The notes under the pieces are model-generated. The model saw only the letters and a list, made by a program, of their open reading frames with translations. It was not told the DNA's origin and ran no database searches. A DNA stretch of 57,883 nt from Psammoneis japonica (Eukaryota). A program made the translations under genes and the position numbers. The stretch spans positions 1-57,883 of the forward strand of contig QPGO01000316.1 in the NCBI GenBank assembly GCA_008632985.1. The letters are read 5' to 3'. Below are positions 28,601 through 51,152 of the stretch, one piece after another. Each line of letters begins with the position of its first letter. Positions within the stretch are counted from its first letter, which is position 1.

Positions 28601-30009
28601 TTGAGCAACCTGGCACTCACCTGTTCTTCACTTTGGCCGCCCTTAAAAACAAACGGGTGTGCGGCACAGATGTCAGCAATGCCTTCACTGAAGCTCCTCC
28701 TCCTGAGCAACGGTTCTACATGAGAGTGGATGAAGTTTTCCAAAACTGGTGGACCAAACACCTGGGTCGCCCTCCCATCCCCGAGGGCTGTGCACTGCCT
28801 GTGCTGAGCGCTCTCCAGGGTCACCCCGAATCTCCCCATTTGTGGAGCATGCATGTGGACAAGATCATCCGTGAACACCTCCATCTTGTCCCAACCACCC
28901 ACGAACCATGCATCTACAGCGGTGCAGTGAACGGCGAAGAGGCGCCATTTCTGCGTCAAGTCGATGATTTCGCCATTGCAACGGACTCGGATGCCACACA
29001 TCAACACATGTGCGACATTGTGGATGAACATCTCACCGGTGGTAAGATTGAACATCAGGGCTTGCTCACCCTGTTTCTTGGTTGTGATGTGGAACAGACA
29101 AAAGACTGCATCCGGCCACACAGCACCTCCTGCATCAAACGGATCTTGGCCAACTGTGCTTTCCTGACCGACGACAACCTCGGCCCGCCTCCCGCCATCC
29201 CGATGCCCGGCGATGCCTCCTGCTCCAAATCCCTTGATGAGGCTCCCACTCCAACTGACTCCAAGGCATCCAAGACCCTCCAACAACAACAGGGTTTCTC
29301 TTGCCGGAAGGCCGTCGGCGAATTGACATGGGCCATGGTCACCACCCGCGTGGATCTCAGCTGCTCGATCACCAAGCTGAGTCAGTTCGGCTCTAATCCT
29401 GGACAACTGCACTGTGAAGGTGTGAAGCATTCTCTCCAGCACCTCAAGCATCACCCCGATTTCGCACTCACATGCTGGCGTCAACAACCTGACACGACGC
29501 TCCCCTGTGCTCCTCCTCCACCTCCGATGACTGTGCCCCATGACCGAGTGCCACTGCCCCCTCAGGCTTCATCTCCTGCCGAGCTTGGCTGCCGACATCC
29601 AACACCGCCGCTCGATTGCGGCATTGCGTTTCTCCCAGCCGGAGCTGCAATCGCATGGAAGACCAGAGTGCAGCCGACTGTGTCAACCTCTTCATCGGAA
29701 GCTGAGTTTGTTGCTGCATCGGACGCCGGAAAAATGGCACTTTGTCTCCGGTCTATCATGGATGAACTGTCGGTCCCCCAGATGCAAGCTACATCAGCAC
29801 ACGAAGACAATGATGCATCCCACAAGATGGCCACCGCAAGCCAACCCACACGCCGCACCCGCCACATTGACATCCGCCATTTCGCTCTTCAAGACTGGGT
29901 CGAACGCGACTCAGTTCGACTGGATCGCATTGACACATCAGCAAATTGCAGTGACATGCTCACCAAGAATGTGGCACGCATCTTGTTTTTCTGCCATTTG
30001 GTGCGTTGA
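22631..30009 (+). pseudogene. Frameshifted, hypermutated gag-pol of the copia element
   Basis: Gag zinc-knuckle-like CDACVACGHSHCSC (~24930); protease DTGAN (~26085); integrase WHHRLGHPG..CSAC, RADQGGE, PWQNGRVE; RT LQGHPES, LRQVDDF; RNase H EAEFVAA, HEDN, RHIDIRHF, DMLTK. Several frameshifts, a MITE insertion and an apparent deletion of the first RNase H Asp motif. Confidence 0.9.
25611..26001. mobile_element. 391-bp MITE, copy 1 (inside the copia; partly hypermutated)
   Basis: TIRs GACGCGTTCCAGCCCCAGGTGGG / CCCACCTAGACCTGGAATGCGTC and 4-bp TSD AACC. Inverted homolog of 50762-51152. Confidence 0.95.
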
Positions 30010-30128
30010 GTGGACGCAACCGTCCCCTTTGTGTGCGGGATGGCAGCAACGACACACCACTGCACTGTTCACTGGAAGAACAGTGCACCCAGACTCACAG
30101 GGGTCACGATTCTCCTGGTGTGGGGGGG

Positions 30129-30175
30129 TCTCAGTGGATCGTGTCATTCCTACTTAGATACAGGGATCTCTATCA
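30129..30175 (+). repeat. 3' LTR (47 bp)
   Basis: tctcagtggatcgtgtcattcctacttagatacagggatctctatca, preceded by GGGGGGG (30122-30128) and followed by the TSD AATGG. Confidence 0.9.
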
Positions 30176-30483
30176 AATGGTTTCAGGGGAAAACGATTCC
30201 TTGAGGCGTCGGTGGAGCAGAGAAGCACGGTAGAAGCACGAGAAAAAAATCGGCCCAAACCCTAATTTTTATAATTTTTTCTACGTAAAATTTCTACGTG
30301 ATTTTTGTACCAGTGCACATGGCTTCTTTGCGTCTGTACGACGTGCGACACACCTTGAGCCTATGGTTCGTCGTCGTTCGTGAACAAAAGTTCGAGTGAG
30401 ACACCATGAGATTCTTCATCTGAGGGGGGGAGAATAGCACCTAGGAACTGACACGACGATGCAACACATTACCGGTAACCACG

Positions 30484-31600
30484 ATGACCAGAGATGATGT
30501 CCCCAGAGATGAGACGCTCAAGGCCGAAGAAGTATCAGCCAGCTCGGCGGTGTCTGATGCGCTGCGCAAAACGCGTTTTCTGTGTATGTTCACGCTTGGC
30601 GACGCGCAGCATACGGTAGAGACAAGAATGAAGAATGTGAATTTTGAGTCATGTTGGATATGCAAAGGCAGAGTACCACCTCCAATTTGTCTTTGGAACA
30701 AAGTTTGATGACGGGATGCTTTCGTGTGAAATCAAGCTCATCGATTGGAGACTCCAGTAGTTTCGCACGCTGATCTTACAGTTGGATGAAACGAACATTG
30801 ATTCTCTATTATCTTGATTTTGAGGGTAGAGTTTCATTTGAAGAATTTACAAGAGGGTCTCTTGCTCCCTTCCAATCTATTACAATGTTCTTTGTCGCTC
30901 AAATGACAAACATCCCGAGCAACCACTTGCGCGTCCTTGATAGAACTGTGATTGAGTGTAAGCCGATTCAGGTTGAACGATGGCCAATCGTCTTTGCTGC
31001 ATATATGCAAAATCGCAAAACAAGAAGCCATGGATTTTTGGATTTTAATTTGAGGACTGGGTCGAAGCTACTTGACGGCTCAATGTCTTTGTATCGTGAC
31101 GACGTGTCTGGGTGGCAGTTGGCTCGGCCATCAAGCGAGTAAATGTGTATCCATTCGACTTGTTCGAGGACGAGGATACAATTTGCCAGAAATCCAGAGA
31201 AAAAAGGAAGAAGCGCACTCCAATGTTATCTTTATTTCATCACTTGTCTGGCTTAGAAATATTAAGGTTGGAATCTCAACCCGAGCCCTCTCGAGTCCTT
31301 TTGGAAACTGTCGATCCCTTCCTTTACGGAGAATATTACGAGAAAATGGCACAAAACAAAGCACGGATCAAGCACATTACCAGTATATGCGCGTGTGTCT
31401 GGTCATTTCTCTGCGCCAATCCAACGAGTTTCACAGCAGCTTTCATCACGAATTGGCGAAGAGATACTCCAAATTGAGACAAAAGAAGACGCTCTCGACA
31501 TCTCACGTAACTGTATGCACATTGGATACGTCTGCATATATGATTTGCCCAATCATCGAAAGATGCGGCACAAGATTGAAGGAAAGGGGAGTTTCCAAGT
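30484..31600 (+). pseudogene. Fragmented unknown gene, part of the duplicated LRR unit
   Basis: Successive ORFs 30484-30708, 30786-31142 and 31112-31477 in shifting frames. A homologous copy at ~50240-52700 is interrupted by two transposons. Confidence 0.45.
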
Positions 31601-32190
31601 AAGTAGCTCTCTGCTTTGCTAAAGGTATCTGTCATATGTAAGAAGGCGCATAGATACAATCTGAATCGCGTCCAAAAAGAACTAAAAGGATAGTAACGTG
31701 CATCTGAGGTACTATCGCTGTGCATTTACACAACTTACGCACTAGTGATTCTGCGGCTATGTTGCTCTGAAATAGATCATTTTCGTGTCGTGAAACGTCG
31801 CTGCGGTGATACATGCTCGTCGGGAAACGCAACGTGGCTTTCGGGACGACGAGACAATGAGAGGAAGGTGCGATAGACCTGTAACAAGCATTTCTACTAT
31901 TGTGCCCTACTAGGGCTTCTGTTGGATGGCGATACCATACGACAACTGCTTCCACAGAGAATCCAGCTGCAGATTCTTGAATCGTCGCGATTGTCTTTTA
32001 CGAGGAAAGCTGGTGTTTCATTGAGTAAGACATTGGTTGAATAGAAAGGGCACAGCTACAATCTGAATGGCATCAATTGGATAGTCATTGGGTCTAGAGC
32101 AAGCGCGTTCATAGAAAGCTACATTGTGCTATTCCACAAGTAGTCGAATTGAGACCGCTGTGTGTTTAAAAGAAATCAACATAGAACAAA

Positions 32191-33360
32191 CTATTCCTCG
32201 CAAGCTCTCTTGGTTCCTCTTATTTCGACTCGTTTCTTTACAAAGTTCGGGTTGTGCTTCAAGAACCAAAATATAAAGTTCTCGTCGCTTCGGCGACCCG
32301 CCAAGACGTGCGGCCAGAGAGCATCAGGAACTCCACTTTCTCGACGCAGCAGGTGTCGTCCGGCCTTGTTCATTTCACAGTAGCAGTCCATTTCACCTTG
32401 AGACTCATTGGTGGGCATTTGAACACTTTCAACCGAATACGAAGCCTCGCCGATTTCTTTGGGCGAAACAGTGAGCGCAAAACAACGCCACAAGCTTAGA
32501 CTTTTGAGACACGGCAGCACTAGAACTTCTTTGCTAACTTGAGTCAATTGCTTACAGCCCTTCAAACTCAGCCCCTCTAGGTTTCGAAGTGATCCCAATG
32601 CAGGAGGCAGCTCTTCAAGACCACGACAACCGCACAAATCCAAGTTTGTCAGATTCAAGAAACTGCTTGTGCCAATGTTTTGAAAGAATTCTTGTAGTGT
32701 GCAATGCAACAAGCCATACAAAGAGAGAGTTTTCAGCTTCGACAGCTGACCAATCTCAACAGGAATTTCAGTGAGACATTTGCAATGACAAAGGTCGAGG
32801 TCTTCCAATTGATGCAACTGTCCAATTCCCGGGGGCAGCCGAGTGAGAGATCTGCAACAGGACAAAAACCTTTTCAAACTTCTTAAACGGAAAATGTCAC
32901 TTGGCAACCCCACGAGACTTCCACATTCTGACAAGTTCAACACCTCAAGACGGAAGAGCCGATGCAAACTACGAGGCAGTCGTTCAAGCTTGTCGCAACA
33001 AGACAATGACAATTCCTTCAAGCTTGTCAATCGTCCAATTTCATCAGGCAACTCGGTCAGTCTACTGCAACATGAAAGGTTCAACACTTCGAGTTTTGTC
33101 AATCGCCCAATTTCTGGAGGCAGTCGCTGGAGATTTACACAATACCTCAAGTTCAACTCCACCAGTCGGTGCAACATGCCGATCTCGGCTGGCAATTCAA
33201 CCAACCGAAGGCAATGCTGCGCACGAATTTCTCTGGCATTGGCGAATCCTTCGTGTTCTGGTTCATTTTCGAAACGAACCCACAATGAAAAACATTTCTC
33301 TGACAGATCTGTAGCTCGTACCATTGCACTCCGGATTCTAGCAGATGCATCGTCGTCCAT
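32191..33360 (-). CDS. Leucine-rich repeat protein (24-aa plant-NLR-like LRRs, diatom-type C-terminal motif), copy A
   Basis: About 10 repeats of LxxLxxLxLxxCxxLxxLPxxIG and C-terminus YCEMNKAGRHLLRR..LWPHVL..IFWFLKHNP. ATG MDDDASAR at 33360 matches the start of copy C. Confidence 0.85.
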   Translation of the reverse strand: MDDDASARIRSAMVRATDLSEKCFSLWVRFENEPEHEGFANAREIRAQHCLRLVELPAEIGMLHRLVELNLRYCVNLQRLPPEIGRLTKLEVLNLSCCSRLTELPDEIGRLTSLKELSLSCCDKLERLPRSLHRLFRLEVLNLSECGSLVGLPSDIFRLRSLKRFLSCCRSLTRLPPGIGQLHQLEDLDLCHCKCLTEIPVEIGQLSKLKTLSLYGLLHCTLQEFFQNIGTSSFLNLTNLDLCGCRGLEELPPALGSLRNLEGLSLKGCKQLTQVSKEVLVLPCLKSLSLWRCFALTVSPKEIGEASYSVESVQMPTNESQGEMDCYCEMNKAGRHLLRRESGVPDALWPHVLAGRRSDENFIFWFLKHNPNFVKKRVEIRGTKRACEE

Positions 33361-33689
33361 TGTGAAGCAATGTCGAACTGGATGCGCACCGTCTTTCACA
33401 AAAAAATAAAGATCTCACGAGTCAGACGATGAACGCAAACATTTGATGGTGACTGTTATCGACAGTGACGGCGTGTTATGACAGCGAACGTACAGTGCGC
33501 TGCCTTGTGAGTCGCTCAATGTCAAATGGTTTGTTTCATGTTTTCTGTGTTGTCGATTTTATTTTGTCGATTGAACAACAGAGCATTTTGCACGGAGGAA
33601 GGCCAGACGAATTGACATGCGAACTGGCGTACCGTATGGCGAGCGGGCTGACTGCATGTTAGTTGGAGCTTTGCGCATGCGGCTTCCCG

Positions 33690-36600
33690 ACTGGTTTGCG
33701 CCCAGTCTCACCGAACTCAACTCACTGCATGGATTACAAACACATGTCTTTTGTCATTTTTACTGCTCTTGCCGTGTTCACTGGGTGTGGAAGCTAAAAA
33801 GTGGGAACAAGCCTCATGAGAGCAACACAAAGAACGCAGGTTCACCGCACCATTGTTTGTTCTCAGCACGTCGCACACTTCAACACTGTCTGTCTGTTCT
33901 TCTTTGACTGCCTCTCACCCTGACATTCCAACACACTCCTTCACATGAGCCATCCATTGATTGGCCTCATGTGTGTCTGTCCTGGGTGGATGACAGTTGG
34001 AAATCATGCCACCCAACACCATGTTGGCTGCTGCTCCGCCGACATTCTCGTGTCCCAAGTCATCTGATGCAGCTGACGAATCATCGCCAGCCATCACCTT
34101 CTTTGAGCAAAGGGCAGTTCTTCTTAGCATGCCCCATCTTGCCACCTTTTCCAGCACATCAGCTGCTTCTTCTTGCCTTCTGCAAAACTTGCATCCCAGG
34201 GTTTCTTGTTGGCACAACACGTGTTCAACACCTGCAGCAGTGCCTCCCAACTGTTGTCAACCCCAAATGTGAGCTGCCTGTGCAGGTCTTCCAAAACAAA
34301 GCAATGTCCCTTGGTGCCTTCCATCAGCAGAGCCACCAATGACTTGTTCCTTTCCTTGTTCTGGGTGTCATCAGAGAGGCGAGAAAGGGCACATGAGTCA
34401 CAGGGCATCATTTGGCACTTTGGCCCAGTGAGTGCGCTCTCAGATTTGTTGCATCAGCCTGTCTCTGATTGAAACACATGATGCTTGATTGTTGGCAGTT
34501 GACCTTTTTTGTTTGTTCTCCACATTTTCATTCAGCAAGCACGTGACTGTTGCCCCATGACCAAATCATTTCATTTTTTGTCACATCTTGGCTCATGTGA
34601 CAACAGTCGCCGCGTGACTGTCCGGCGTCATTTTGCTCAAATCTGCAAAGTTGCATTTGATTGTTGCTGTGGACATTTCCACTTGGCAGTTTCTTGAAAA
34701 TGTCAAATGAAATTTGTGCACTCACCAAAGTTTTTCACATTGCACATTGACATGCTTGGTTGTCAGGGCAACATCCAGAGCAAGGCGACAGCGAATCCGG
34801 CACTCGTCCATTGTGTGAAGCAACCAACACTGCAGTGCGTTTGTCTTTTCTGCAACACTTCTATGTGATTTCTCTTGTTGTCAACTTTTTCTTGCTTTGT
34901 GAAGTTCAACAAATGCAATGTCAACACAGTGATTTCCCTCAAAAACCCACTTGGTCTCCTCTTTGTGTGAAATGACTTCCGCGGCAATTTTTTGTCCTTT
35001 CCATGAGAGTTCTGCACAAAATTCACCCTGTCAACTGTTGCATTCTTTGTTTTCACCACATCAATGGGGTGAGATTTGCATGCCCAATGGTGGCGTGTGG
35101 AGAAATCTGCTGAGCACCATGGTGACTCCCGTTTGACTCAGTTCAAGAATGGTGGCACAGAGGAACAAGCATCAGGCCCCCTCTTCCAGTGATTCTGAAG
35201 ACTCAGCTGGTGATGAAAAAGAGGGAGGTCATTTCTTCTGACCAACCACAGTGCAGCACAGGGAACACAGAATTGCCTCTGGTGGTGACTCTCTTTGTGA
35301 ATGATTCCCGGACTGTGTCATTCATGCACACAGTCACAAATGTTCAAAATGTTTTTGAAACTCAGGGGTGCAATTTTAAATCCATTCTGCTTTTTCAAGT
35401 CAAGAGAAAACACAAAAAGGGAAAGCCAGCTTGCAACAGTGTGCAAAGCAGTGCTGGCCACCACAGCAAGTGCAGGCAAACATGCACAACACAAAAGGCA
35501 ATGATCAAACATTGCAGCTGTGGCTCAGAGACAGACACCAGCCTGAGCAAGTGGACAGCCAATGATGAAAAGGTTGGCAGAGACATCATCAAGATGAGAG
35601 ATCATGTCCAAAGAAAAAGCGTTTGTGAGCATCACACTCATGTTTGGTGCAAAGCAATTGAGTTGGACAAAACAGGCATGCTGCATGGCAAAAACAAGAT
35701 CAGCTGCAAGTGTTGCTGGGTGTTGATGTTGAGCAAGATTTAAACTGATGCAAGCAGCACAGCATTGTGCCATTTCCAATGACACAAGGGCATGACAAGA
35801 TGAAGGAGCAACTCTCAGCTCTGACAGAAGTTGTGAATGAGCTTGAGAGCATTGCTGACAAGGGGCTCACAGAAAGGAGATTGTTGCAGAAAAGAGAAAG
35901 TGTGCACCAAGCAGCTTGAGCCCAGCAAAGGAAGGCACAGGGAGATGATGCAAGATGCCAAGGAAAAGCAAGGGACATGGCCGCCAAGAGCCAACAAGTT
36001 CTTTGAAGAGCCGGTCAAGGAGATCAAATGAGACATGATCACAAGTGAGTGATTTGGTTGATGGGGAGATTTGTGTTGAACAACAGCAGCCAGCCATGGA
36101 AAGCAGGGAGGTGAAGGACTTGAGAACTTGGGTGCTGAGGGAGACCACATGGCCAGCTGCACCAAGATCTACAAACTGGAGTTGATGGTGGTTTGACAGA
36201 TAAAAACCTGTGAGTGGCATTGTTTTCATTTTTCAATGTGAGATTCCATGGCAACACTCAATTGCAGAAGCTGCACCTTAGATGGCAACTGTCCAATTGA
36301 GCATTTTGTGTGGGCATCAACTTGCTGATTTGTGCCAAACTTGTTGGTTTGACCTCTTCTTGGTTGGAAAACTTGGGGACATTTGTTGGAAAGCAAAGGA
36401 CATTTGCTCACTTCAAATCACACCAATTTGTCATGAACAGGTGTGGTTTGTGATGAATTGGATCACAAATGAGTTCATGTGCTTGCACTCACAAACTTTT
36501 TCTCTGACCATTGTCTGCTTGTCAGCCAGCTGCCAGGAGGATTCATAAATTCAGGCCCCCAATGGATGTCAGCATCCAACCTGCACCCTTTTTCTTTCTT

Positions 36601-37736
36601 GGTGATTTCCTTGGGGACAACTCTGCAACATGACCCTTCCACCATCTCTGCAGTGCTTGCAAACCAGCTGTGGTGGTCTCAAAGCACTTCTCCATGCTGT
36701 CAAATGAGCAACAGTCATTTCCACACCTTGAGGACCACCTGGACATGCGGGCACACTCTCTCATTTGGCTGCATCAAACAGGATCAAATTGATCGTGTCC
36801 TCCAATGGTGTGCCATCACACTGCACTCCTTTGTGACCTTTGCAAACTCTGTCACTCCAAGCTTGTGATGGACAGCTTTTGCACACTGTCCCACAATCAC
36901 ATTGAATGCCTTCACCTTCTGCATCTCATGGATTGCACCCTGCTTCATGCAGTGGCCACGCTGTTTCCCCCAGATTGCCCTGTCATTCTCTGATGCAGTC
37001 ATGCCCAGTGGATGTTCTGGTTCCTCTGGCCTGTTCTCTTGCCTCAGAGATGCCAACACCTGCATCTCTGGCCTGAGCACTCTTCCCACACACTCACTTG
37101 TCTTTCTTGCATTTCCATGCAACTGCCCACCTGTCTGCCCAACTCAGCAATGGCATCGTGTGTCCACTCCTTTTGATCTTTTGTGCTTCCATGCTCAGCT
37201 GTTGTGTCCTCAACCAGCACTCCAGTCCAACACATCCTTGCTGCACCCCACCTTGGCAGACCCTCCAGCTGCCCTGCAGCAAGGCCCTCCAGAGATTGCT
37301 GGTTGTCACTTGGTCTCACTGACCTCAACTCACCACATGGATTGCACACACACACACACACACACANNNNNNNNNNNNNNNNNNNNNNNNNNNNNNNNNN
37401 NNNNNNNNNNNNNNNNNNNNNNNNNNNNNNNNNNNNNNNNNNNNNNNNNNNNNNNNNNNNNNNNNNNNNNNNNNNNNNNNNNNNNNNNNNNNNNNNNNNN
37501 NNNNNNNNNNNNNNNNNNNNNNNNNNNNNNNNNNNNNNNNNNCACACACACACACACACACACACATCTTTTGCCTTTTTTGCCACTGTGGCCATGTCAA
37601 CCAGGTGCAGAAGCTAAAAAATGGGAACAAGCCCTGCGATTTGTCAAGAGCAACAAACAGAAAATTCACCAAGTCAGTGTTTGTTGTCAGCACATCACAC
37701 ACTCCCAAAGCTGCCTCTTGCCCTGATGTTCCAACA
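33690..37736 (-). mobile_element. Old degenerate CoDi-like LTR element (LTRs ~33690-33933 and ~37297-37736)
   Basis: Diverged direct repeats (ctcaactcac..ggatt..gaagctaaaaa.tgggaacaagcc..ttccaaca), both starting TGTTGGAA on the minus strand. PPT-like GAAGGAGTG before the 3' LTR. Gag-like KAFNVIVGQCAKAV in ORF 36784-37122. Confidence 0.75.
37345..37566. repeat. (CA)n microsatellite spanning an assembly gap (N 37367-37542)
   Basis: CA runs on both sides of the N block. It lies inside the 5' LTR of the 33690-37736 element. Confidence 0.95.
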
Positions 37737-39805
37737 CAAACATGCTGCATGCTCATTGTGCACAAGATTCAAGTTCCAAACACTGGTCATTTGTCAGGTT
37801 GGTCCGCTCATTGAGTTTTGTAACACCCCTTCCTTTCTGCACATTTTCTGCATGGACTCAGTGCCACACAAGTCATTTCCTGTCACCCATGTGTGGCAGC
37901 GCCAGTCAACTGACACCCTTTCCTGATCCAGCATGTCCAAACCAGAGACAGCACAGATCACAGACAGAACAAAAAGGAAAGCAGGAAAGTCAGAGCTGAC
38001 CAGTGAAAAACACATTGCAGGCTGGATGACCAAAGAACAAATGGACAACAAAACAAATGCACAAGGTGCTGTTCAGCAGCAGGAGGTGCCAAATGCCAAA
38101 CAAATGGAGACATTGTGTCTCAATGGAAGTGTCCCATGAGGCAACAAGCATGGCACCAGGCACCCAGCATCAACCCAAGAGCCTTGGCAAGATCATCACT
38201 TGCACTGACATGGCCAGGAATGATGTGTCTTGTGGCAGAGTGCCGACCATCTTCCTTCCAACCCCGAATTGTGGCCAACATCTGTTGAGCATCAGTGTGG
38301 TGCTGCAAGTGCTCAGCAGGAACATGGTTGCTGATGATCTTGATGACAGGCAGCTCATCATCAACAAACAGTGGAGTGGGGTCAGGCTGGGAAAAAAGAG
38401 CTCTTGAAGAACTGAACATGAATGCAGGACATGCTTGGTGGTGGCGTGTCAGCGGCACAAAACTCAGCCTCAGCAGAGTCACCCACAGCAACTGGCTGCA
38501 TCTTGCAATGGCAGGAGATTGCAGTGCCTGCCAAAGTGCATCCATGCCCTGCAGAGGACTGGTGGTTCTGAAGGTCATTGCCGCAAACAGCATCCAAGAA
38601 AGCCATGAGCTGCGTGAGCAACTTTGCAGAAGGGAAAGCAGGCAAAGATGGGTCAACCTCAAGCTGCTCAAACAGACAGGCAGGTGGCAAAAGATCCTCC
38701 CAAGATTTCTTGCAGCTGACACCCCAACACTTGGTGCAACAAAGACACTTTGCAATGTCTGCCAAAGCAGCAAACTGAGTGGGAGCAGGTGACAAGGCAA
38801 ACTTGGAGAGTGTTGCAATTGTGTGCCCCCAGTGCCAAGGCAACAAATGACATGTGCACACAACAATGGCCCAAGAAGATGCTCTGGACAGCACATGATT
38901 GAGAAGTCTTCAACTTGCCACTGGAGGAGAGTGCACTTGCCCTCATGGGTGGATGCACAGACACACCTGTCATGGGTGGTGTTGGAGAACAAGAGCTTTG
39001 CACTCAGTCAAAATTCCAGACTCCTCAGGGTGACCTGGATGTGCACACAAGACAGGCAACTCTCCACATTCCAATCAAGGTCAACTCCAAAACAGGTTTT
39101 GTGCCATGTGGCAAAGGCTTCGTCAACCTTGCTGACATGAAATTGAGTGCACACATGGTGGTGAGGCCAAGAGCATCATCACAATCTGAGCACTCCAATG
39201 TGGGGATGGTTCCAAAAAGGGCCCAACAGTTTCCTCTGCCCTCCCCTGCTCTTGATCCCTCCCTGGGCTGACATGTGGCATGCAGTGGCACAAAAGTGTC
39301 ATCAGGTGCTGACACATTGATGTTGAAAGTTGTCAACAAAGTTGCAGGAGTGGTGGATGCAGAAGTGTCAACTGGAGAAAGAGGTTTTGCACTGGTTGGT
39401 TTTGGAGCTGGCAACCACTCTTTGGTGCCCCCCAGCTGTCATTGTGGTGTCTGAGTGAAGAGAGAGTGGGCAGCATTGCAGGTGCTCACAACTGGCTGCA
39501 ACAGCCTGGTTGAAAATCCAACAATGATTTTTCAGATTTCATGAGTGTTTGCCCATTCTGTCCAGCAGGCGCAAATTTCTTGGGCTGCCAACAAATGCAG
39601 GTGCACATTTTGCAGCCTCTCATTTCAAGACCTGACAAAAGTGGATGTGGAAGCCCTTGATGTGTGGGTTGTTCTTGAGAGCAGGGCAGCTGTCAAACAG
39701 ATGGTCCCCTGCGCAGACCAAATGCAGTCACTTTGTGGCCTTGTTTGGTGCTGCCTTGATCTTGAACACAGGTGCCATGCAGGTGTGGTGGAGAAGGTGG
39801 TCATT

Positions 39806-40720
39806 GACTTGTTCCAGACTTAGGTGCACTCACGCGCGAAAAAATGACCCTTTTTGCATGAAACGCGCGGTCCACACTTGCGGTACCATTTTCGATAGTA
39901 AAAACATAACAATTTACAAATGTGTTGTTATGGGTACATACAGAATTGTCTTGTGCGTGTACCCATGTATTCGAAACTGTTGATGGACTCAGTCATTAGT
40001 CGCTAAATTGTACCGTAAGTTGAGAGCTCGAATTTTCCGATGAGCGATTTATATATGCCTAAATGTAACAAGAAACATATAAAATATTATTCATATATAT
40101 AAATTAAGTCTTTAACATAGCATAATTAATATTTTGTTTTTATACGCGAATATGAGTTACACTCAACGGATCGAATAAAGCATTCGTTGATTAATAAGTT
40201 TAGGACGACGTGAGAAGAAGTGTAGCTCAGCCCACGCAATGGCGTCGACTTCGGACCATTTTTCACGGTTTAAAAGGCATAAACGATTGATACACTTGAA
40301 TCAGTCGAATATATTGAGGAAATATACATGGTAATAGAAAAGAAATGGTCCTTAGAGGCAAATTGTGAGTGAATAGAGGCTCAATTGTTGTTGCTGACAG
40401 ATTTAGCATTATTGTGCCGCGCTGCAGCCTTCAACAAGCATTTTCACTATTGTTGTTGATGACACAGACTATATCAAATACGGAGATCGTGGTCATGACA
40501 TTCAATTTTCCATAAGGCTGAAAAAAAGTGGGCCGTCATGGTCACTGAAAGCCATGGCCGGTTTGGCTGTTTGTTTGTTCGAGTTTATTCTGTTTATTTT
40601 ACTTACAAGCCATTGATATGATCAATTTTATTAAATATGTACGGTGTTCGATAAAGCATTAAAAAATTATTTTTTCTGCGAAAAGGGGCATGTGCGCGCC
40701 ACCTAAGTCTGGAACAAGTC
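39806..40720. mobile_element. 915-bp non-autonomous DNA transposon, AT-rich and essentially unmutated
   Basis: Perfect 21-bp TIR GACTTGTTCCAGACTTAGGTG and 4-bp TSD CATT (39802-39805 and 40721-40724). No coding capacity seen. Confidence 0.95.
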
Positions 40721-41275
40721 CATTGTCCATGGACGGGAAATTGAAGATGGGTGAGCTCATCACAAAAGCTGCTGAAGGTGTTGTCCATGGGTGGGTGTGA
40801 TGGCATCTTTTGGAAGTGCTTCATCTGGAGAAGAGTCCTGAGGTGGCTCATCATGCCCCCCCGCCCCAGCAAAGTCCAGAGCATTGACGCTGAGGTTGCA
40901 TCAGCACATGCCATCATTGCAGTGATTTCTGGGACAGTGGGAGTTCTGGGCCCATTGGGAAAAAGTGCCACAATCTGACATGTGCCAGAACTGTGATGAT
41001 GACTTGTCACTGGTCAAAACAAAAGTCAGTGGAGGAAGATCCAAGGAGATCCTGTCAGTCTGCCTGTTGCATGATGGACAGACTGTGTGTGGATGATGGC
41101 CAGACCTCTTGGATGGGCCAGCAGATCTCTCTGAGATCTGCCTCTTGTTCTCTTCTGCTGGCACTCATGTTGTCACAGTCCCAGTGCTTGGGGAGTCTTT
41201 CATGTTGTTGTCATCATCAACCTTTGGCATTCTGCCAGATCCTCCACACAGTCTGGGTGCCCTGATTTCTGTCCA

Positions 41276-41297
41276 GTGTGTGTGTGTGTGTGTGTGT
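41276..41297. repeat. (GT)n microsatellite within the putative 5' LTR remnant
   Basis: About 11 GT units. Confidence 0.9.
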
Positions 41298-41799
41298 CGA
41301 CACACCACTGGAGTGTGTTTTGCTGACACACATGACTCACTTGAGTCATGACCCAGTTGGCTGTCACCCTCATGCAGTGCAAGAGATGAGCTCCAAATGC
41401 CAGTTTGTGATGTTGGTCTGTTGTCTGTTCGTTGACTTTGCAATGTCCCTTCCTTTCTGCAAATTTTCTGCACAAAATTGGAGCCACAATTTCCCACCTC
41501 AGGAGAAATCACCTCACTGAATGAAAAATGATGAGTGGTGCCCAAGAATCCCATTTGACTGGAAAAGGCTCTTCTGGAACTTTGCTTCGAAACATGCAGC
41601 TTTGACAAATGTGCTTTGCAGCTTTGTGGTGTCTGATTGTCACTTGCCGTTGCCTTTTCAGATTTCCTGTCCACTGTCATTTTCATGCAAAATGGTGAGC
41701 AATTGCCACACCAACCACATCAGCAAGGCATGTGTGATTCTCATGTTGGAGCATCTGAGAGTGCGGCTGCCACAATGACACAAATGACAAGCTGTGCAC

Positions 41800-42425
41800 A
41801 ATCTGCAAGAAAAAAAGTGATTGACCATGTTGATGCTTTTGAACAACAAGTGCCATTCACAAATCATTTTATGTTGCAAGCATCACACCCGGTGGTGCCA
41901 CACTCACAATGGCAAGCAACCAAAGGCCAACTGCAACAACTCCACTCATCTTGCAGAAATGGTGCATTTCAGTGCTGTGATGCACCTCTGTGAGGAATGG
42001 CTTTTCTCAGAAAACAAAACTTCCATCTCACAGTCAGGCCACCCAGAAACAAAAAGAGTTTGCCACTTTTTGGCCAGCCAAGTGCACACACCTCATCAAA
42101 CACTGCATGCTTTCAATGAATGAAAGCCAGTTGTGTCATGGACATGGACCAACCACAAGAGCTTCTTGGCTCCAAAGAAAAAAAAACGAAGCAGCAACAA
42201 TGCAGAGAGACAAGGAGAAGTTGATTGAAACAATCAAAAAGATGAAAGAACAGTGAAGGAGAGTGTCAGCAAAAAAATTAGATTTTGCACAAGAGGAAAG
42301 AACACACAGAAAAAACAAAAGGCAAGACAAGACTGGGGTTCACATGGGAGAAAACTTGAGGCGATGGGCAGGTGAACACAAACAAGACTGGCATCACAGA
42401 GTGTTCAACAAATTCAAGGCATGGG
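41800..42425 (+). pseudogene. Hypermutated copy of the gene at 54860-55516
   Basis: For example gccagttgtgtcatggacatggaccaaccacaagagc (~42126) versus attagttgcgtcgtggacgtggaccgactacaagagc (55081); also gttgattgaaacaatc and ttagattttg..caagaggaa. Contains stops and indels. Confidence 0.85.
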
Positions 42426-43627
42426 CAAAGGTTTGTGAGAATGTTTTTGCATGTTTGAGCAAGGGCTCTCAATTTTGCAGCAGCAAGCCCAAGGAAAGAC
42501 ATGAAAACACAGCAAAGGGGACAAGAAAAGCATGTGCAAGAAGAGAGCAACTGCCTGCTGCACATTGGTGGGCAGGAGCACTTTGGAGCAATGCCAGCAG
42601 CAAACTCCAGTGTCAATGAGCTGTTGTTGTTGCAGCCTCTTGTTGTTTCAATGCCAGCGGCACTTTGCCAGAGCTGAGATGGCCCAGCTTCTGCCCCACC
42701 CACTCTTTTGCTTCCAGCGGCCCAGTTCTGGGCTCAGCCACAGCTTTGGGAAGCTCAGCACAGCACTGGGACTCAGGTGGGTGCCCCCAAGCTGTTGGTT
42801 TTAAACTCCCGCCACAAAGTCAGTTGCACCAGCTGCAGCAACAGCAGTTGCAGGGAAGCTTGGGCTCAGTGGACCAACTGTGTGTGATGCCAAAGATTGA
42901 CTTTGGAATCTGGGCTCCACACCAAATGTTCCAATGGAAGCTGACCCAGCACCTCAGCAGCCATTTCCAGCTGGCTCCAAATGTTGTGTCTTCAAACCCA
43001 CATTTCATTTCAAAGCAAACTTCAAAATCTTCTTGACATGGCCACCATGTTCCACATGGAACAACATGATGTGTTTTTTGCAAGTTGTGTGGTGGTGGTG
43101 TGTGGTTGTTTTTGACAACTTCTTTCCACCCAGGGCTGGAAGGCATCTCATTTTTTCCCAGTTGCCCTGCCACCACACCCAAAGGCCCAGATGCAAGGGT
43201 GTGGATTGCAGGTTGTTCTGAAGCCAAAGCAGACAACTGAATGTTTTTATGGAGTGCCACTCCATTTACAAAGACACAGTTCTGAGTCCTTGTTCCAAAG
43301 GCTACAATAGAAAGCCCTAAACCCGAAACGCAACGTTTGCGAGTTTTATTGTTGAGAAAGGCCATTTGTGTTGCTGTGATGGCAGTGTTGAATTCACAGG
43401 TTTAGGTTTACAAGTACTTATCACTGAAAAACAGTTTTTGGTCTCAGCTTCAACTGTATCGATTCAGCCACATTTCCTAATGTGCATCCATAGAACACCA
43501 CCATCCAATCATCTGAGGAAGCTCATTAGCAGTGGCAACCTTTGTTGTCAGTGATAATACAGGCGTGTGTCTAGAGTAGAAAGCTTTATGAATGACATGG
43601 TGGTGTGTGTCTAGAGGAAAGCCTCAG

Positions 43628-45226
43628 CTAGTCCGAGTCACACAAGTCGATCACAATGGCGGGTGCATTGGACTTTGGCGTTACCTTCTTCTCTTCCTTC
43701 TTATGGAGAAACGTTTTGGCAATTTCAATCGCTTCCTCTGGCCGTCCTTCTTCCAGAGCTTTCACTGCATCTTGATTTGCCGAAGCGGGAATGTAGTCTG
43801 CAGATGATGTAGAAGAGACAGGAGGAAGCCTGCATGGCAGACGACACTGCCACTCTCTGCGAGTCGACGCACATGCTGTGGCCAATACGACTCCAATCTC
43901 TACATTCCTGGGCATTTCCCCGCGTATGCCCCACGCCGCCACACTAAAGTTGTGAGAACCAACGTAGACAATACTGACACCTTGATTGCAGGGAGAAAAC
44001 AAAACCTTGGCATGGGAAATGGCATGACAACCCAAATGGGATAAGCCATACTCGGGTGGGTTGGGAGGTGAGTCGAAGAAAATTTGGCGTTTGGCCGCTT
44101 CGGGGATTGTATTCCAGTGTGACTGTGGTATCGCGCGAGTGCGACTTATGAGAGAAATCAAATTCATGGTAAGGGCCGTCTCATGGCTAGGCCACATGCA
44201 ACGAACGCTCTTCAAGACGCTCTCCCACGGCGTGCTCCTTGGTGCTGGTGTATCCTCCCCTTGAAAGGCTCGATGCATCTGCAGAAGAAAGTCGGGTCGG
44301 ATATTCCCAAACGATCCCGCCATGGCATACACGAGCTTTCCGCCCTCTTCCTCTTTCTCAATACTAGCAGCAGTATGAGGACCATCACCATCGCTCTCAC
44401 AGTCAGAGCTCTCATAGTCAGAATGGACACCCAATTCGCAAAGAAAACTGCTGACGACGGATGCCAGTTGACTATAACCACCGCGATCATTAGCATGGCC
44501 AGCATAACCAGCGGAACGAGGAAAGGACATGACCAATCTCGCAGCAGCAGTTGTCATGTCTATACCTGCCAGCAGTGCATCTAGTCTTGACTGAATGATT
44601 CGGTTGTCGGATACGCTTCCGCAGGAGGTTAGATCGTCCAAGAAGGTCGGTAGCGTTTTTCCAAAGCACGATGCTTCCGAACTAAGATTGTCTCGATTTA
44701 AATGAAAGTCTTGTACCCACAAGCAGTCTCGATCGACTTCCCACTGCCCCTGGAAGAGATTACTTCCACATACGACAACACGGAGTCCCAAGTTGCATCG
44801 AAAGAGCAGTAGCTTGCTGTGTAGACAGCCACCCGTATGAGGTTTGCACAGCAGATAGTACCACCGTGAAGATGAAAGGCTTTGTTGTTGTCTCGGAATT
44901 CCCACGAGTTGGGCATCTCCAATCATTCGTGCCTCGGAGTCGGGCCGTCCATCATGGACTACCACTGCGAGTTCCGGAATGTCACCAAAGATTTGTTCGA
45001 GCCAGTCTTTTTCCGGAGCGACAAATGTCGTACAAAGTGCCGAGCTGCAGGCGGGAGGTAGGAGATTCTGTATCGCAACGTGACCGTCCTTGAACTCTTC
45101 TCCCGGATTAAGGCGATTTCGATAGATTGTATTTCCTCGAAAGGTTCCAAAGGCAAGTCCGTGATCGACAGTTTCAGCAGAGTTATAGTCTTCTAGTCGA
45201 CGGCGTTTCGAAACATCAGAAGACAT
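43628..45226 (-). CDS. TDP1: Tyrosyl-DNA phosphodiesterase 1-like protein
   Basis: Two HxK motifs with the TDP1 context: LHSKLLL..RVVVCGSNL and SHAKV..YVGSHNFSVAAWG..NVEIGV. First ATG at 45226. Confidence 0.8.
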   Translation of the reverse strand: MSSDVSKRRRLEDYNSAETVDHGLAFGTFRGNTIYRNRLNPGEEFKDGHVAIQNLLPPACSSALCTTFVAPEKDWLEQIFGDIPELAVVVHDGRPDSEARMIGDAQLVGIPRQQQSLSSSRWYYLLCKPHTGGCLHSKLLLFRCNLGLRVVVCGSNLFQGQWEVDRDCLWVQDFHLNRDNLSSEASCFGKTLPTFLDDLTSCGSVSDNRIIQSRLDALLAGIDMTTAAARLVMSFPRSAGYAGHANDRGGYSQLASVVSSFLCELGVHSDYESSDCESDGDGPHTAASIEKEEEGGKLVYAMAGSFGNIRPDFLLQMHRAFQGEDTPAPRSTPWESVLKSVRCMWPSHETALTMNLISLISRTRAIPQSHWNTIPEAAKRQIFFDSPPNPPEYGLSHLGCHAISHAKVLFSPCNQGVSIVYVGSHNFSVAAWGIRGEMPRNVEIGVVLATACASTRREWQCRLPCRLPPVSSTSSADYIPASANQDAVKALEEGRPEEAIEIAKTFLHKKEEKKVTPKSNAPAIVIDLCDSD

Positions 45227-46321
45227 GATTTTGAGAAAGTTACACCTCGGAGGTGAATGAGGCTGGTATCGTCGTAGTGTCGTTGACAATCCAATATTGA
45301 GCCCCCCTGTTTATTTTTCTATCCTATCCCACCGGCGTGAAATTCTATCCAATAAATGCAAACAGCATGTGCATTACTTCCACGTGCTTCACATTCAGTC
45401 TACTGTAATGGAGAGCGCCATCGTATCTCCATTTTCGTTTCTATCTCGAGCGTTCAGACGTGTCTGTCCTTCTATCCAAGAATCTGTATGTACTTCTACA
45501 GCATTTTAAATATCTTCATTCAGTACTCACGACTCACTCACGACCACCGCAAATCCATCACTTGGACGTGAAAGGTAAGGGATTTGTGATAGACTAGGTC
45601 AATAAAAGCGTGTCAAATGCGACGGTATGGTGAACTGCTTGGTTTCTATGGGATATTGAGTTCTTTTTTGTGGCTTTTTCTCCGAGCTTGTTGCACCATC
45701 GTGAAAAATGGTTACAGCAATCCACCCCTGACGTCTTGGCAAGAAGATTGATTCGCCTCGGAACCGGTAGAGTTCACTACAGAGCAAACAAAGGAAGTCA
45801 CAAAGCATGTCAGGGAACAGCTTCGGGATAAAAGTTCTGCGGACAGCCATAATCTTAGAGAACGCGAGACTATAGTCCCCATTTTGCATTTCCGCGTCGT
45901 GTTGAATTCGTTCATCACGTAAAAACAACAGCATAAGTCATTCAACTAGTCGAGTGCATGAAGCAGGAAGCGGAGATGGTTAACTTCTTGTGTCACAGTC
46001 TGCAACAGACGGCGCCGCCGCTGTCTGCATCTTCAGAAGGCCTCGTGGACAGTGGACTAGGAATGCATGCAAAAAATGTCGCCTTTGAAGTCGACAGCAC
46101 TTCCAGCGCAACAATCACCTTGTACTGTATTATAAATTATGTATTTTAACTCAGAATAATTTTTTTGTTGAGTCTAGCAGCAGCCGCTGTATTTGCCTAT
46201 TCTCCGTGCTGTTTCTGTTGCTCGTTAGATGGAGCCACTTTCCGAGGCCCGATGCTTTTCTGCACTCTGCATGTGTGTAGTGGCGGCTGCATTCGCTCTT
46301 TCTCGGCACTGTGTCTGTCTA

Positions 46322-47443: not shown

Positions 47444-47689
47444 TCTCTCTCGGATACTCTCTGGTTTTGTTTTGTGTTCGGTTTCTTGGTTCTTACGGCT
47501 TGCGGTGTGCAAGATTTGTGAGTGATCACGTGATCACGCATGCAACATCATGATGTCAATCTGGAAATCTTGTGCGAAGTGCGCTGAAGTCCCGCTTTGA
47601 AAAGCGCTCAGCTGTTTTTTCGCGCGAAGTTTGCTGTCGTCGGTCACGAGTTCCAGTCCCGAGCGTTGCTAGTGTGACGTCATGACTTC

Positions 47690-48500
47690 AACGCGCAGAT
47701 CGTCTGTTCGACTGAGAAGTTTGAGACTTGGCAGCAACAGTGCCTCTTTGCTGATTTGCGTCAATTGTGCACAGTGCTCCGCATCCACACGACCTCCAGG
47801 TTTTTAAGTGATCGCACTGCAGGAGGTAGCTCTTTGGGACCACAACAAAAGCCCAGCAAGCTCTCAGGCGCAAGCAGAAACGTGCTTTGCAAGAAATCTC
47901 GTGTGCAGCGCGACACTCCACACAAGCAGAGAGTTTTCAGCTTGGACAGCACACCAATCTCAACATGAATTTTAGTGAGACCATTGCAGTGTGAAAGGCA
48001 AAGGACTTCCAACTGATGCAAAATCTGCCCCCCCCCACCAGCTCCAGACGGTGACCAAGCGACGAGGCAGGAGATGTGTGCAGCTCCACACTCTGCAAGA
48101 TCAGACACTTCAAACTTCTCAAAAGGAAGACAATCATTTGGCAGCCCCTTGAGACTTTTGCATGAGATGTCAAGCCCAACACTTTGAGACACAAGAGCTG
48201 GTGCAAACACTGTGAGGCAACCACTCAAGACGACTGCTGACATGGCCATCCAGCCCAAAAATGCCCTCAAGCTCGCCACTCGTCCAATCTCACCAGGCAA
48301 CAACTTGGTTGGCCCACAACAATCTGTGAGATTTTGCACTTTGAGTCTTGTCAATCATCTGTTTGCTGGAGGCAATTGCTGGAGATTTGCACAATTCTTC
48401 AAGCTCAACTCTGCCAGCTGGCACAATGTGCCAATCTTGGCTGGCAACTCTTCCCCTTCATGCTCTGGTTCAATTTTAGAGTGAAACCGTGGTGTCTCCT
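47690..48500 (-). pseudogene. Hypermutated LRR gene copy B
   Basis: Degenerate LRRs (LLPGEIGRVASL, LHQLEVLCLSHCNGLTKIHVEIGVLSKLKTLCL, KELPPAVRSLKNLE) homologous to copies A and C. Tyr-free and frameshifted. Confidence 0.85.
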
Positions 48501-50750
48501 CTGACAGCTCTGCAGCTGTGAGGCCCAATGCTTTGCTTCAGCATGTGATCACAACCCCCCCCATGTTTTGCCAAAACACATTTCCAGCCAACCGGTGTCA
48601 TGCCAACGCAAGAAATTCTCAACAACGTTTTGGGGTGACATGCAGAGAGCTGCATTGGTCACAGAGCCACTGAAATTTGCCCCTCGTGCTTTCCCATGTG
48701 TGATGAGAGCACTTCTTGAAAAGTCTCAGCTCTGTTCTCAAACATGCAACACCACAAACAATGCATGCTTGTGGTTCTGCAATCTCACAAGACATTGATT
48801 TGAGGTGTTGGAGACCAACAATGCCTGCATCTTGGGCATTTGTGTTGTGTCTCTAGCGGGGGGTCAAAATCCAGCCAAATCTTCCAAAAATTTTGAGTCA
48901 AATGGGTTAAGTGGGATTCAAGACTCGTGACCAGTGGTGTGATGAAAATGTTTGTTTTTTGTTTTTGACCCTTTCTCAATGCCAACAAGACATTGGATCA
49001 TGATGACATCAACACAACCCATTTCATGGCTGTGCTCTGCTTTCCATTCCATGGCTGGCCTCCTGACAACTGTGGTTGACTTGTGCCGCACAAAGGCAAA
49101 GCAACCCACAAAAACTTGTTGCAAGCAACTCACTCATTTTTCTTTTCAGATTTGACATTTGTGTCTTTGAGGTCAGCAATCCAGAGCACTGGACAAAAGC
49201 AAGGTGTGGAAGCTCAACTCATTTGGTTTTGTCATCCCACAGGATGTTGGCATCTTGGCATCAATGCAATGCTGTCAACATTGTTTGAGTGTTTTTTCTT
49301 TGATCACACACCAAGAATCTTGTGAGCAAACTTCATCCTGTGTGTTTTTTCTTTCCAGCCAGACTCTTGCCAAATCAACAAAATCAAAGTGACTTGAGCC
49401 ATCAGAGTTGCTTCACTGCAGCCTCAAAAATTTCTGGGATCCAAGTTGTTGCTCTGCACACAGGAAAATCTGGGGCCAACATCCTTTGCTTTCTTGAAGA
49501 TCACACCGCCACAGCAGCTCCCTCTCCATCTCACTGGCAGCTCTGACACAAAACCAACCTGATGTGCTCCAGCCACACGTGGACCAAATTGTGCACAAAA
49601 ACGACATTTGCATGACATTCACGCGGTCTCTGACTTGCGATCGAGCTTTCTCCACCAAAAGATGAGGAGCAACGTGTCTCACACCACCACAAATCAGTCA
49701 CCCATTGACCCTTTCTTGCATTTCCACCAGCTTTGACTCAGCAGGTGCCCAAAATCTGGCAAATGGTGAGTTGACACATTGTCTGCATGCAACGTGGTGA
49801 CACCACGAACAGCTGGAGCGGCACATTTGCACACTTCTTGGCTCGCTGCCACTTTGCTGATGGCCCCTTCGCACCCCCACACATGAGGCAGTGCAACAAG
49901 CCTGCTGTTGCAATGGGACTCGAAATGGTGATGTTCATCAGGAAACAGTTGCGCGATGAAGTCCACTGTCGTCATCGGCAACTTCCGTTCAATTTCCATT
50001 TGGCTGCTGGCAATGCATGGCATGGAATGGAGTTGCGCAGTCATTCACCGTGGTGATGGTCTGTGCGCTTGTCCGGAGCGCACTGCGAACCGTCTCAGGC
50101 AAAAAAGAAAAACGCAGCAGTGCGATCAGACATGGGCCATGGGCAGTCAGAACGATGAACGCAAACATTGTTTGATGGTGAACCTGTTGTCGACAGTGAC
50201 GACATGTCATGACAGCGAACGCACTGTGAGGTCATCGTTCAAATGAAACCACGGCACCCCAAAACGAAGACGGGATCGAAGACATCAACACGCTCAGAAG
50301 CCGAAGCAAGGATCATCAGCTCGATGCGCTCTGCGCAAACGTTTTCGCTGTGTTCTCGCTTGGCTTGCGACGATGACGCGCAGCACAGAGACAAGAATGA
50401 AGAGTGTGCATTTGAGCAATGTTCGAACCAATGGCAGAGCACCACTTCCAACCAATGTGCATTTGGCACAAGTTTGATGACGGGATGCTTTCGTGTGAAA
50501 CAAGCTCATCAAAAATGGAAACTCGAATGGTGTCACACAACTGGTCGCACTGTCCTCAACGTTGGATGAAATGAGTTTTCAACAGCTGGAGCAGTTTGGT
50601 TTGGATGGCAAATTTTCGTTTGAAGAATTTGACGGAGGCCGTTTTGCTTCCTTCCAATCCTGAACATTTTTCTTTGTCGCTCAAATGACAAACATCCCAA
50701 ACAACCGCTTGCGCTTCCTGTGGTTGACTCTGAGCCGACTCAGGCTGACC
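47700..50750. other. Hypermutated domain 3 (TpA depleted; CpG also lost in the core ~48100-49600)
   Basis: Few TA. The duplicated upstream motif tgttatcgacagtaacg (54528) reads tgttgtcgacagtgacg here (~50185), and ggcagagtacc (~30667) reads ggcagagcacc (~50433). Confidence 0.85.
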
Positions 50751-50761
50751 TACAGTCAGTC

Positions 50762-51152
50762 GACGCGTTCCAGGTCTAGGTGGGGACCTCGCACTACTGA
50801 ACTGTGACATCGATAGTTTTTTGAATCTCGTCGTATGTCGCGCACGTAGAATTCTACGTGATTTTTTGATATTTTGTGTCATTTTACGGTACACTTATTG
50901 AGCGATCCGTCCAAAAACTTTTGACATTTTTTGTTACAGCGCGATTCTATAATGTCTTAAAAAATCGCGTAGGGCAGGTGCATTTGCAAAAACGTCGAGT
51001 GGCAAGAGGCATAATTGTACCACAAACTTGGCCGTTTATTTGATGTTGAAGATAAATATATCCATTAATTAAATTCTCGCACTGCGGAGCTCGCACGTAG
51101 AATTCTACGGGCCAAATGTCACACGGAGTCCCACCTAGGGCTGGAACGCGTC
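50762..51152. mobile_element. 391-bp MITE, copy 2 (essentially unmutated)
   Basis: TIRs GACGCGTTCCAGGTCTAGGTGGG / CCCACCTAGGGCTGGAACGCGTC and 4-bp TSD AGTC. Absent from the paralogous site near 30985. Confidence 0.95.

Follow-up and report, generated by a model that had tools for sequence, protein, structure and literature searches.

In the chlorarachniophyte Bigelowiella natans, integrated DNA of nucleocytoplasmic large DNA viruses (NCLDVs) and of virophages undergoes hypermutation at TpA steps, according to the preprint of Mettrop et al. (bioRxiv 10.64898/2026.01.13.699255). The preprint gives a rate raised about 1000-fold per generation, reports hypermutation in 11 of 15 lines, and proposes an ADAT2/3 adenine deaminase; the 211 changes that it gives for 6169 TpA over 3132 generations amount to about 1e-5 per TpA per generation. 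With regard to diatoms, DNMT5 is described as maintaining CG methylation on transposable elements in Phaeodactylum (PMC9998398). Here, we report on the loss of TA and CG dinucleotides from transposons and dead gene copies of Psammoneis japonica, as seen in a 57,883-bp stretch of DNA (the window; contig QPGO01000316.1, positions 1 to 57,883, designated C317, of the 91-Mb assembly GCA_008632985.1) and in related loci of the same genome. The pattern is probably due to two separate mutation processes acting on silenced domains, a fast one at TpA and a slow one at CpG, the TA/CG state of a sequence being a measure of its exposure.

Dinucleotide contents are expressed as observed/expected ratios (o/e), and the expected counts for the elements of the window were set at the genic o/e, with a TA baseline of 0.55. 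The genes of the window, among which are ordinary host genes (FTHFS, anoctamin, TDP1, and leucine-rich repeat (LRR) genes), exhibit a TA o/e of 0.53 and a CG o/e of 0.99. For two proteins, the relatives that bear a name come from diatoms. Three sharply bounded TA-poor blocks, hereafter domains 1 to 3, are observed at about 21800-30170, 33800-43240, and 47500-50760. Domain 1 corresponds largely to a dead Ty1/copia long terminal repeat (LTR) retrotransposon with o/e values of 0.13 for TA and 0.75 for CG; 22276-30170 contains 50 TA where 206 are expected, and 472 CG where 630 are expected (Poisson p < 1e-10). An earlier note on this DNA had described this element as having lost TA but being full of CG. 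The first part is correct, whereas the CG content lies below that of genes. Of 207 sites at which one or more of five copies have CG, the element keeps 140, some of the 207 possibly being gains; up to a third of its CG has thus already been lost. TA conversion by itself would bring the CG o/e down to about 0.88. The element was also said to be structurally intact, which applies only to its ends, i.e. the LTRs and the 5-bp target site duplication (TSD; 22270-22274 and 30176-30180). Its coding region, in which gag_pre-integrs, SH3_retrovirus, and, weakly, RVT_2 (E 1e-4) domains are recognized, is broken into five open reading frames and carries a 391-bp insertion, and tyrosine makes up 0-0.4% of its residues, compared with 2.0-3.7% in three host genes.

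As previously noted, domain 2 and the core of domain 3 have lost both TA and CG and are rich in CA and TG. In domain 2, the o/e is 0.02-0.03 for TA and 0.10-0.14 for CG, and CA and TG together make up 23% of the steps. The region 33800-39805 retains 10 TA (212 expected) and 47 CG (344 expected), and 40722-43240 retains 3 TA (94 expected) and 14 CG (145 expected), with Poisson p < 1e-10 in both regions. The description of 33800-43240 as one old domain is valid for these two flanking parts but not for 39806-40720, a young element with TA and CG. Similarly, domains 2 and 3 do comprise old repeats, as proposed, but they also contain host-gene fragments.

Direct comparisons of copies indicate that TA is converted after insertion. 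The 5' and 3' LTRs of the copia element differ by TA against CA or TG at five of their six differences, and their sole CG is kept in both. Five further near-full copies, each with its own TSD, are found elsewhere in the genome. Among five copies at different target sites, 58 positions show both products, CA or TG depending on the copy, as expected if each copy was converted independently. The small element with terminal inverted repeats (TIRs) inside copia, MITE1 (for miniature inverted-repeat transposable element), differs from its twin at 50762-51152 by 18 of 25 TA (11 to TG, 7 to CA), 2 of 29 CG, and only 9 of 269 other sites (Fisher p 7e-7). The CA and TG steps, being the products of the conversion, are retained in 44 of 49 cases in this pair. 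The copia family itself has LTRs of just 47 bp, starting with TCT and not TG; all six copies are TA-erased, and none is intact among the matches scored.

The order of the two losses was determined on a blind sample of 30 stretches of 10 kb, picked unseen at round coordinates and divided into 300 tiles of 1 kb. Tiles were classified as TA-/CG+ when TA was <0.25 and CG >=0.6, and as TA+/CG- when TA was >=0.35 and CG <0.4. Under this classification, 159 tiles were TA+/CG+, 35 TA-/CG+, 76 TA-/CG-, and 30 intermediate, and none was TA+/CG-; the TA o/e was under 0.1 in 101 of the 300. The TA+/CG- corner is occupied by 1 of 599 blind 500-bp tiles and by 0 of 1040 repeat-enriched tiles. Repeats depleted in CG but intact in TA, which the earlier note had named as evidence against its view, are thus not encountered in the blind 1-kb tiles.

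The relative rates were obtained from MITE1. A set of 94 distinct full-length copies, a non-random sample, was taken from three lists, each holding the 40 most similar of 1150-1550 candidates, and the rate analysis was carried out on 85 copies of the two main subfamilies at 27 TA and 28 CG sites, after exclusion of 9 of the 94 copies (one small subfamily and one outlier) and of 4 of the 31 TA sites, which vary among young copies. Mean TA losses of 2%, 21%, 68%, and 83% correspond to mean CG losses of 0.5%, 0.4%, 9.5%, and 22%, respectively. When site-specific TA rates are fitted, the TA dose is 18-36 times the CG dose (four bins, dose >0.3). TpA conversion is therefore faster than CpG decay by this factor per median MITE1 site, in agreement with the earlier suggestion. 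Whether CG loss lags behind TA loss was examined in the MITE1 copies, and no clear lag was found; as the ratio of the doses stays roughly the same, two processes running in parallel, each at its own rate, are sufficient. CG loss exceeds TA loss in just 2 of 93 copies, both with 0-2 changes. A third repeat family, of which 8 copies out of about 40 places were compared, behaves alike: copies with 0-4 of 22-23 TA lost have lost 0-2 CG, and more converted copies have lost 11/22 TA with 2/43 CG, 16/23 TA with 4/42 CG, and 19/23 TA with 22/43 CG. In a simulation, 90% CpG decay of genic DNA lowered the TA o/e only from 0.53 to 0.44. As TA-/CG+ DNA is moreover common, TA loss is not a by-product of CpG decay, a point on which the earlier note was also right.

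The conversion affects both strands, with 473 TG and 621 CA produced over 93 MITE1 copies and no excess strand clustering (chi2 53 on 58 degrees of freedom). TA is converted 2.5 times as often before C or T as before A or G (fractions of 0.41 for TAC, 0.44 for TAT, 0.15 for TAA, and 0.17 for TAG). Surviving TA are enriched for YTAR, which accounts for 7/13 in domain 2 and 21/50 in copia, compared with 109/736 in genes. In MITE1, the relative TA rate is at least several hundred times that of transversions, and even the copies with the strongest conversion show A>G changes outside TA at no more than 1.1% per site. This weaker non-TpA signal rises with conversion and is found mostly in AAT (20) and CAC (9) contexts. 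A CA>CG change would supply new CpG to decay and may set the CG floor.

The CG content falls with neutral divergence in two families, so that a lack of relation to age, the other observation that would have spoken against the earlier note, is not what is seen. The farther away the nearest relative of a copy is in transversions, the lower its CG o/e, both in the copia reverse transcriptase family (rho -0.90, n=15, the copies being non-independent) and among the domain-2 repeats (rho -0.47, n=28, an allele pair being left out); loci shorter than 300 bp or without a partner were excluded, leaving 15 of 21 copia loci. In MITE1, copies with less than 50% TA loss and those above differ in singleton transversions (5/12021 against 14/10157 sites, p 0.019) and in non-CpG C>T changes (6/4827 against 19/4083, p 0.004). 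MITE2 (the young element of domain 2), MITE1 in copia, copia, and domain 2 rank in the predicted order, and the nearest relative by transversions lies at 1.2% for copia and at 4.5-12% (non-allelic) for domain 2. Long LTR pairs were sought by self-comparison of the collected loci and none was found, hence no LTR-dated series is available.

Several results weigh against a clock of this kind. With the allele pair included, the correlation in the domain-2 family weakens (rho -0.35, p 0.06). A close relative exists for two CG-poor copies of this family. The link of MITE1 to neutral age is weak (rho with transversions of 0.26 for TA and 0.32 for CG; 0.10, p 0.34, for TA when non-singleton changes are counted), and among the 39 converted copies CG loss is related to neutral changes with rho 0.24 only (p 0.13). 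Neutral markers vary 3-4-fold where the TA dose varies about 100-fold, and copies of similar TA state vary more widely in CG loss than chance would give (overdispersion, chi2 147 on 35 degrees of freedom). As the MITE copies come from top-40 similarity lists, the sample is biased to close copies. Finally, arithmetic from copia, MITE1, and the haplotypes described below gives a CG turnover of 40-330 times the transversion rate, which is at or above passive decay in humans; in the human germline, CpG decay is about 60-fold per CpG.

The state also depends on position. In the first 250 bp inside 24 edges of TA-poor domains, the positions of which are approximate, the o/e is 0.11 for TA and 0.60 for CG, and CG falls to 0.21-0.34 in deeper bins. 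TA loss thus reaches 0.25-1.2 kb past the CG-poor cores, into old host sequence. Within the window, 50290-50762 keeps 0/14 TA and 13/25 CG of its paralog 30514-30990, at 12% transversions. The copia element lies in a host repeat, as a locus elsewhere (L065) matches 21930-22274 contiguously with 30189-30325. The host repeat is consequently older than copia, yet its right side keeps TA and CG; the homolog at L065 has itself lost both. Comparison of 30957-45275 with contig C41, a second haplotype or a recent duplicate of the region, gives transversion rates of 0.33% in domain 2 and 0.30-0.36% in the flanking genes, whereas CG-bearing sites differ in 44/74 cases in domain 2 and in 4/240 in the genes. 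CG is therefore still turning over at its floor. Of the 169 TA sites in the genic parts, 9 are TA in one version and CA or TG in the other, with other transitions at about 0.1%, a hint of a weak TA leak into unique DNA. Saturation is reached at about 0.1-0.3% neutral transversions for TA and at about 3-5% pairwise for CG. Because of the halos in old host sequence, the host repeat of copia, and the saturation of both clocks, the state cannot be equated with repeat age. The earlier proposal that it ranks repeat age holds as a trend within families but fails at domain edges, in late-silenced sequence, and at saturation; what is ranked, coarsely, is exposure inside a silenced domain and not insertion age.

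The features of the window are listed in Table 1. In domain 2a, the CG o/e is 0.36 in the left 1.35 kb and 0.07 in the core. The segment 34900-36700 has 67 matches in the genome, the nearest non-allelic ones at 66-79% identity. When domains 2 and 3, along with L032, a younger relative, were translated in all six frames (30 frames in total, stops read as X), a Pfam search gave no useful match that would place the domain-2 elements in a class. MITE2 retains 74 TA and 41 CG, with 2/77 TA and 1/40 CG changed, and is absent from the matching haplotype on C41, where its site is empty. The 41908-42378 segment is a dead copy of the gene-like region 54859-55344, and 6/7 TA and 19/23 CG of the live copy are now CA or TG. 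In the dead LRR part of domain 3 (47711-48450), 3/4 shared TA and 12/16 shared CG read CA or TG; together with the paralogs 31052-33488 and 52077-54564, it provides a clean before/after set of two live copies and one erased. The 620-bp element at 21300-21925 has 2/23 TA and 1/43 CG changed, and an internal TA/CG gradient sought inside it was not found. This element, 39806-40720, and 50762-51152 are three abundant young non-coding elements. MITE2 and the MITE1 copy at 50762-51152 share related terminal repeats starting with GAC and 4-bp TSDs, and are mostly found in TA-erased flanks. A CA microsatellite in domain 2 (37345-37566) is interrupted by an assembly gap of 176 bases. An assembly artefact is disfavoured as a cause of the pattern, as contigs of run X1, which may itself be the source sample, are present in 30/30 bins between 21600 and 41500 and, over 469-842 bases of domain 2, differ from it at 5-10 positions.

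Table 1 Features of the window related to TA and CG loss
Feature	Position	Strand	Remarks
Ty1/copia LTR retrotransposon, dead	22275-30175	+	TSD, LTR pair, domains; middle state TA-/CG+
5' LTR, 47 bp	22275-22321	+	differs from 3' LTR at 6 sites
3' LTR, 47 bp	30129-30175	+	retains more TA; sits at domain edge
MITE1 (small TIR element) inside copia	25611-26001	.	4-bp TSD; TA mostly converted, CG intact
Host repeat of copia, left part	21930-22274	.	TA 2, CG 16; TA lost, CG kept (halo)
Host repeat of copia, right part	30176-30330	.	TA 8 (o/e 0.60), CG 8 (o/e 1.22); both kept
Domain 2a, old repeat debris	33800-39805	.	TA and CG both lost
MITE2, young 915-bp TIR element	39806-40720	.	4-bp TSD; TA and CG intact (starting state)
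Domain 2b	40722-43240	.	TA and CG both lost; holds dead gene-like copy
Core of domain 3 with dead LRR-gene paralog	47976-49570	.	TA o/e 0.03, CG o/e 0.17
Right halo of domain 3	49571-50761	.	1 TA, 63 CG; partly old host sequence downstream of live LRR gene
Young MITE1 copy, almost unconverted	50762-51152	.	4/31 TA, 0/28 CG changed

In the mechanism that we propose, both processes would act on chromatin domains that are presumably silenced and methylated, and both would end in CA/TG. The faster one would be a TpA-specific A:T>G:C change, operating on both strands after insertion with a preference for TA followed by C or T, and would run about 20-30 times faster per site than the slower one. The latter, the decay of CpG to TpG/CpA, would most simply result from the deamination of 5-methylcytosine (5mC) placed by a DNMT5-type enzyme. 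A new insertion would thus pass from TA+/CG+ to TA-/CG+ and then to TA-/CG-, never via TA+/CG-. As the TA process would extend further out than CG decay, the state would depend on both the duration of the stay and the depth inside the silenced domain; inside a family it would go with the age of the insertion, a relation that would break down at domain edges and in late-silenced sequence. The TA step could be the work of a TadA/ADAT-type enzyme that deaminates adenine in DNA to hypoxanthine, a reading to which we give slightly less than an even chance. If transversions represent 1/3-1/2 of the Phaeodactylum mutation rate (4.77e-10; PMC6604790), converted MITE1 copies would very roughly correspond to 4e-7 changes per TpA per generation.

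With regard to candidate genes, the genome contains a DNMT5-like exon (E 3e-13 to PDB 7r76) and 27 matches to PF00145, including at least three DNMT1/DNMT4-type paralogs. This DNMT1/DNMT4-type family seems to be expanded and partly struck by the TA process. A C5 DNA methyltransferase copy at L220 (C301:34800-37200) lies in TA-erased DNA (TA o/e 0.09, CG o/e 0.73) and has no tyrosine among 365 residues, and more such copies, on C297 and C10, carry stops. Five matches to PF14437 were found, two of which are a dCMP deaminase and its allele; none is tied to the TA process. The deaminase gene of the window (55607-56581) was set aside as a mutator, since its motifs are those of what we take to be a dCMP deaminase; over 55607-56900, this gene shows an internal tandem duplication of its domain (repeats D13 and D17). 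At L223 (C79:87600-89600), a deaminase zinc motif adjoins a DIOX_N dioxygenase domain in one open frame, which may be two genes or a fusion.

The TA-/CG+ state could also be explained by nested targeting rather than time, with a TA mutator acting on the whole domain and CpG methylation restricted to its inner core or to certain families, such that TA-/CG+ DNA would be unmethylated. Such a scheme is in line with the CG gradient at the 24 edges, with the 1.2-kb TA-free, CG-rich halo at 49571-50761, and with the overdispersed CG loss among equally TA-converted copies. It is unlikely as an explanation of the whole pattern, given that CG content declines with divergence inside one family, that two MITE1 copies 700 bp apart have lost 14/29 and 1/29 CG, and that CG loss in MITE1 is independent of flank CG (rho 0.07); it does account for the halos and is in this respect part of the best explanation. 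It is conceivable, though we would not expect it, that TA loss is an episodic switch, a copy remaining untouched until silenced and its TA then being erased in bursts, which would make the TA state a flag more than a clock. The small range of the neutral markers relative to that of the TA dose suggests such bursts, as does the restriction of hypermutation in B. natans to some lines in the preprint (bioRxiv 10.64898/2026.01.13.699255). However, partly converted copies form a continuum and show no strand clustering, and a steady clock could be masked by the noise floor that errors and inherited variants create.

The chemistry of each step may differ from that proposed. CG loss could also be driven by an enzyme, in the form of a RIP-like (repeat-induced point mutation) C>T change at CpG by a DNMT4/RID-type protein, which we consider improbable. 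The excess of CG differences between haplotypes at equal transversion rates of 0.33% and the presence of DNMT1/DNMT4-type paralogs would fit such an activity, and diatom DNMT4 may group with RID (PMC9998398). These paralogs are, however, known by family match. Moreover, the rates from copia and MITE1 (about 40-130 times that of transversions) overlap the value of about 60 for passive decay in humans. As for the TA step, TpA is self-complementary, so that A>G after T is indistinguishable in sequence from T>C before A; a thymine that is oxidised or aminated and then misread as C, or error-prone synthesis during repair of TpA, would thus look the same as an adenine lesion. A single clear TadA-like gene was found; it carries an N-terminal leader and could encode an organellar tRNA enzyme. 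Nevertheless, the TAY preference resembles the substrates of TadA/ADAT enzymes, which makes a lesion on thymine rather doubtful. Mettrop et al. also favour adenine deamination (bioRxiv 10.64898/2026.01.13.699255). That TA depletion is only a compositional by-product of CpG decay, or that the elements were TA-poor at the outset, can practically be dismissed. CpG and TpA deficits do covary in vertebrate DNA for arithmetic reasons, and three TA sites of MITE1 vary even among young copies, so that some changes are inherited. Yet the simulated TA o/e is 0.44 and not 0.03, TA-/CG+ DNA is common, the LTR pair and the CA/TG-discordant copia sites point to change after insertion, and the direct pair comparisons refute both ideas.

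In a literature search that covered few subscription papers, we found no account of TpA erasure in diatoms and none of the ordering of TA and CG loss. As far as this search showed, a natural eukaryotic A-to-G DNA hypermutator is known from one preprint only, and the process described here is of that kind; the present measurements concern the empty TA+/CG- quadrant, the ratio of 18-36, and the age trend with its limits. The rate ratio to CpG decay, the context rule, and the sharp halos provide handles for the search for the enzyme and for its dependence on methylation. About four in ten kilobases of the genome are affected. In such genomes, dating by LTR pairs or by copy divergence is strongly inflated unless TA, CG, CA, and TG sites are masked, and the loss of TAA and TAG produces long stop-free frames in dead elements as an artefact.

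Compared with known systems, the slower process resembles the CpG decay of methylated transposons, in which CG is replaced by TG or CA in repeats increasingly with age, and a DNMT5-like gene is present. It differs in that this age marker is here the slower of two processes, with 5mC as its presumed source; the main text of PMC9998398 does not mention deamination. The faster process shares with ascomycete RIP a dinucleotide-specific transition hypermutation of repeats, on both strands and with leakage into neighbouring sequence, but has the opposite polarity: RIP creates TpA from CpA/TpG (PMC2621366), whereas TpA is destroyed here. Fungal RIP is ruled out, as its C:G>T:A change, mainly CpA>TpA, is not observed, CA and TG are products, and TA is lost. 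Young high-copy elements remain unconverted, which bears on the homology trigger of RIP, itself a premeiotic and RID-dependent process.

The closest system is that of B. natans, which exhibits the same TpA>TpG/CpA change, with both strands affected and only foreign or repeated DNA concerned. In P. japonica likewise, A:T>G:C changes occur mainly at TpA and on both strands, and are local to repeats, genes being at background. In B. natans, Pfams related to transposable elements are enriched in TpA-poor coding sequences, according to the preprint (bioRxiv 10.64898/2026.01.13.699255). The two cases differ in that the process was measured there directly, by following two viral inserts of partial TpA depletion (rho 0.45) through mutation-accumulation lines, whereas here TA loss is near-complete and concerns transposons and dead gene copies. 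The words 'CpG' and 'diatom' do not occur in the main text of the preprint, so the rate ratio and order relative to CpG decay are not part of it. We tentatively suggest that adenine deamination at TpA of silenced chromatin, in diatoms as in the chlorarachniophyte, serves genome defence and is an A:T counterpart of RIP shared across the stramenopiles, alveolates, and Rhizaria (SAR). If so, this deamination outpaces CpG decay 20-30-fold, reaches past the methylated core, and may precede 5mC or work without it, and the paired TA/CG states map the silencing time of each part of the genome and the spread of its silenced domains.

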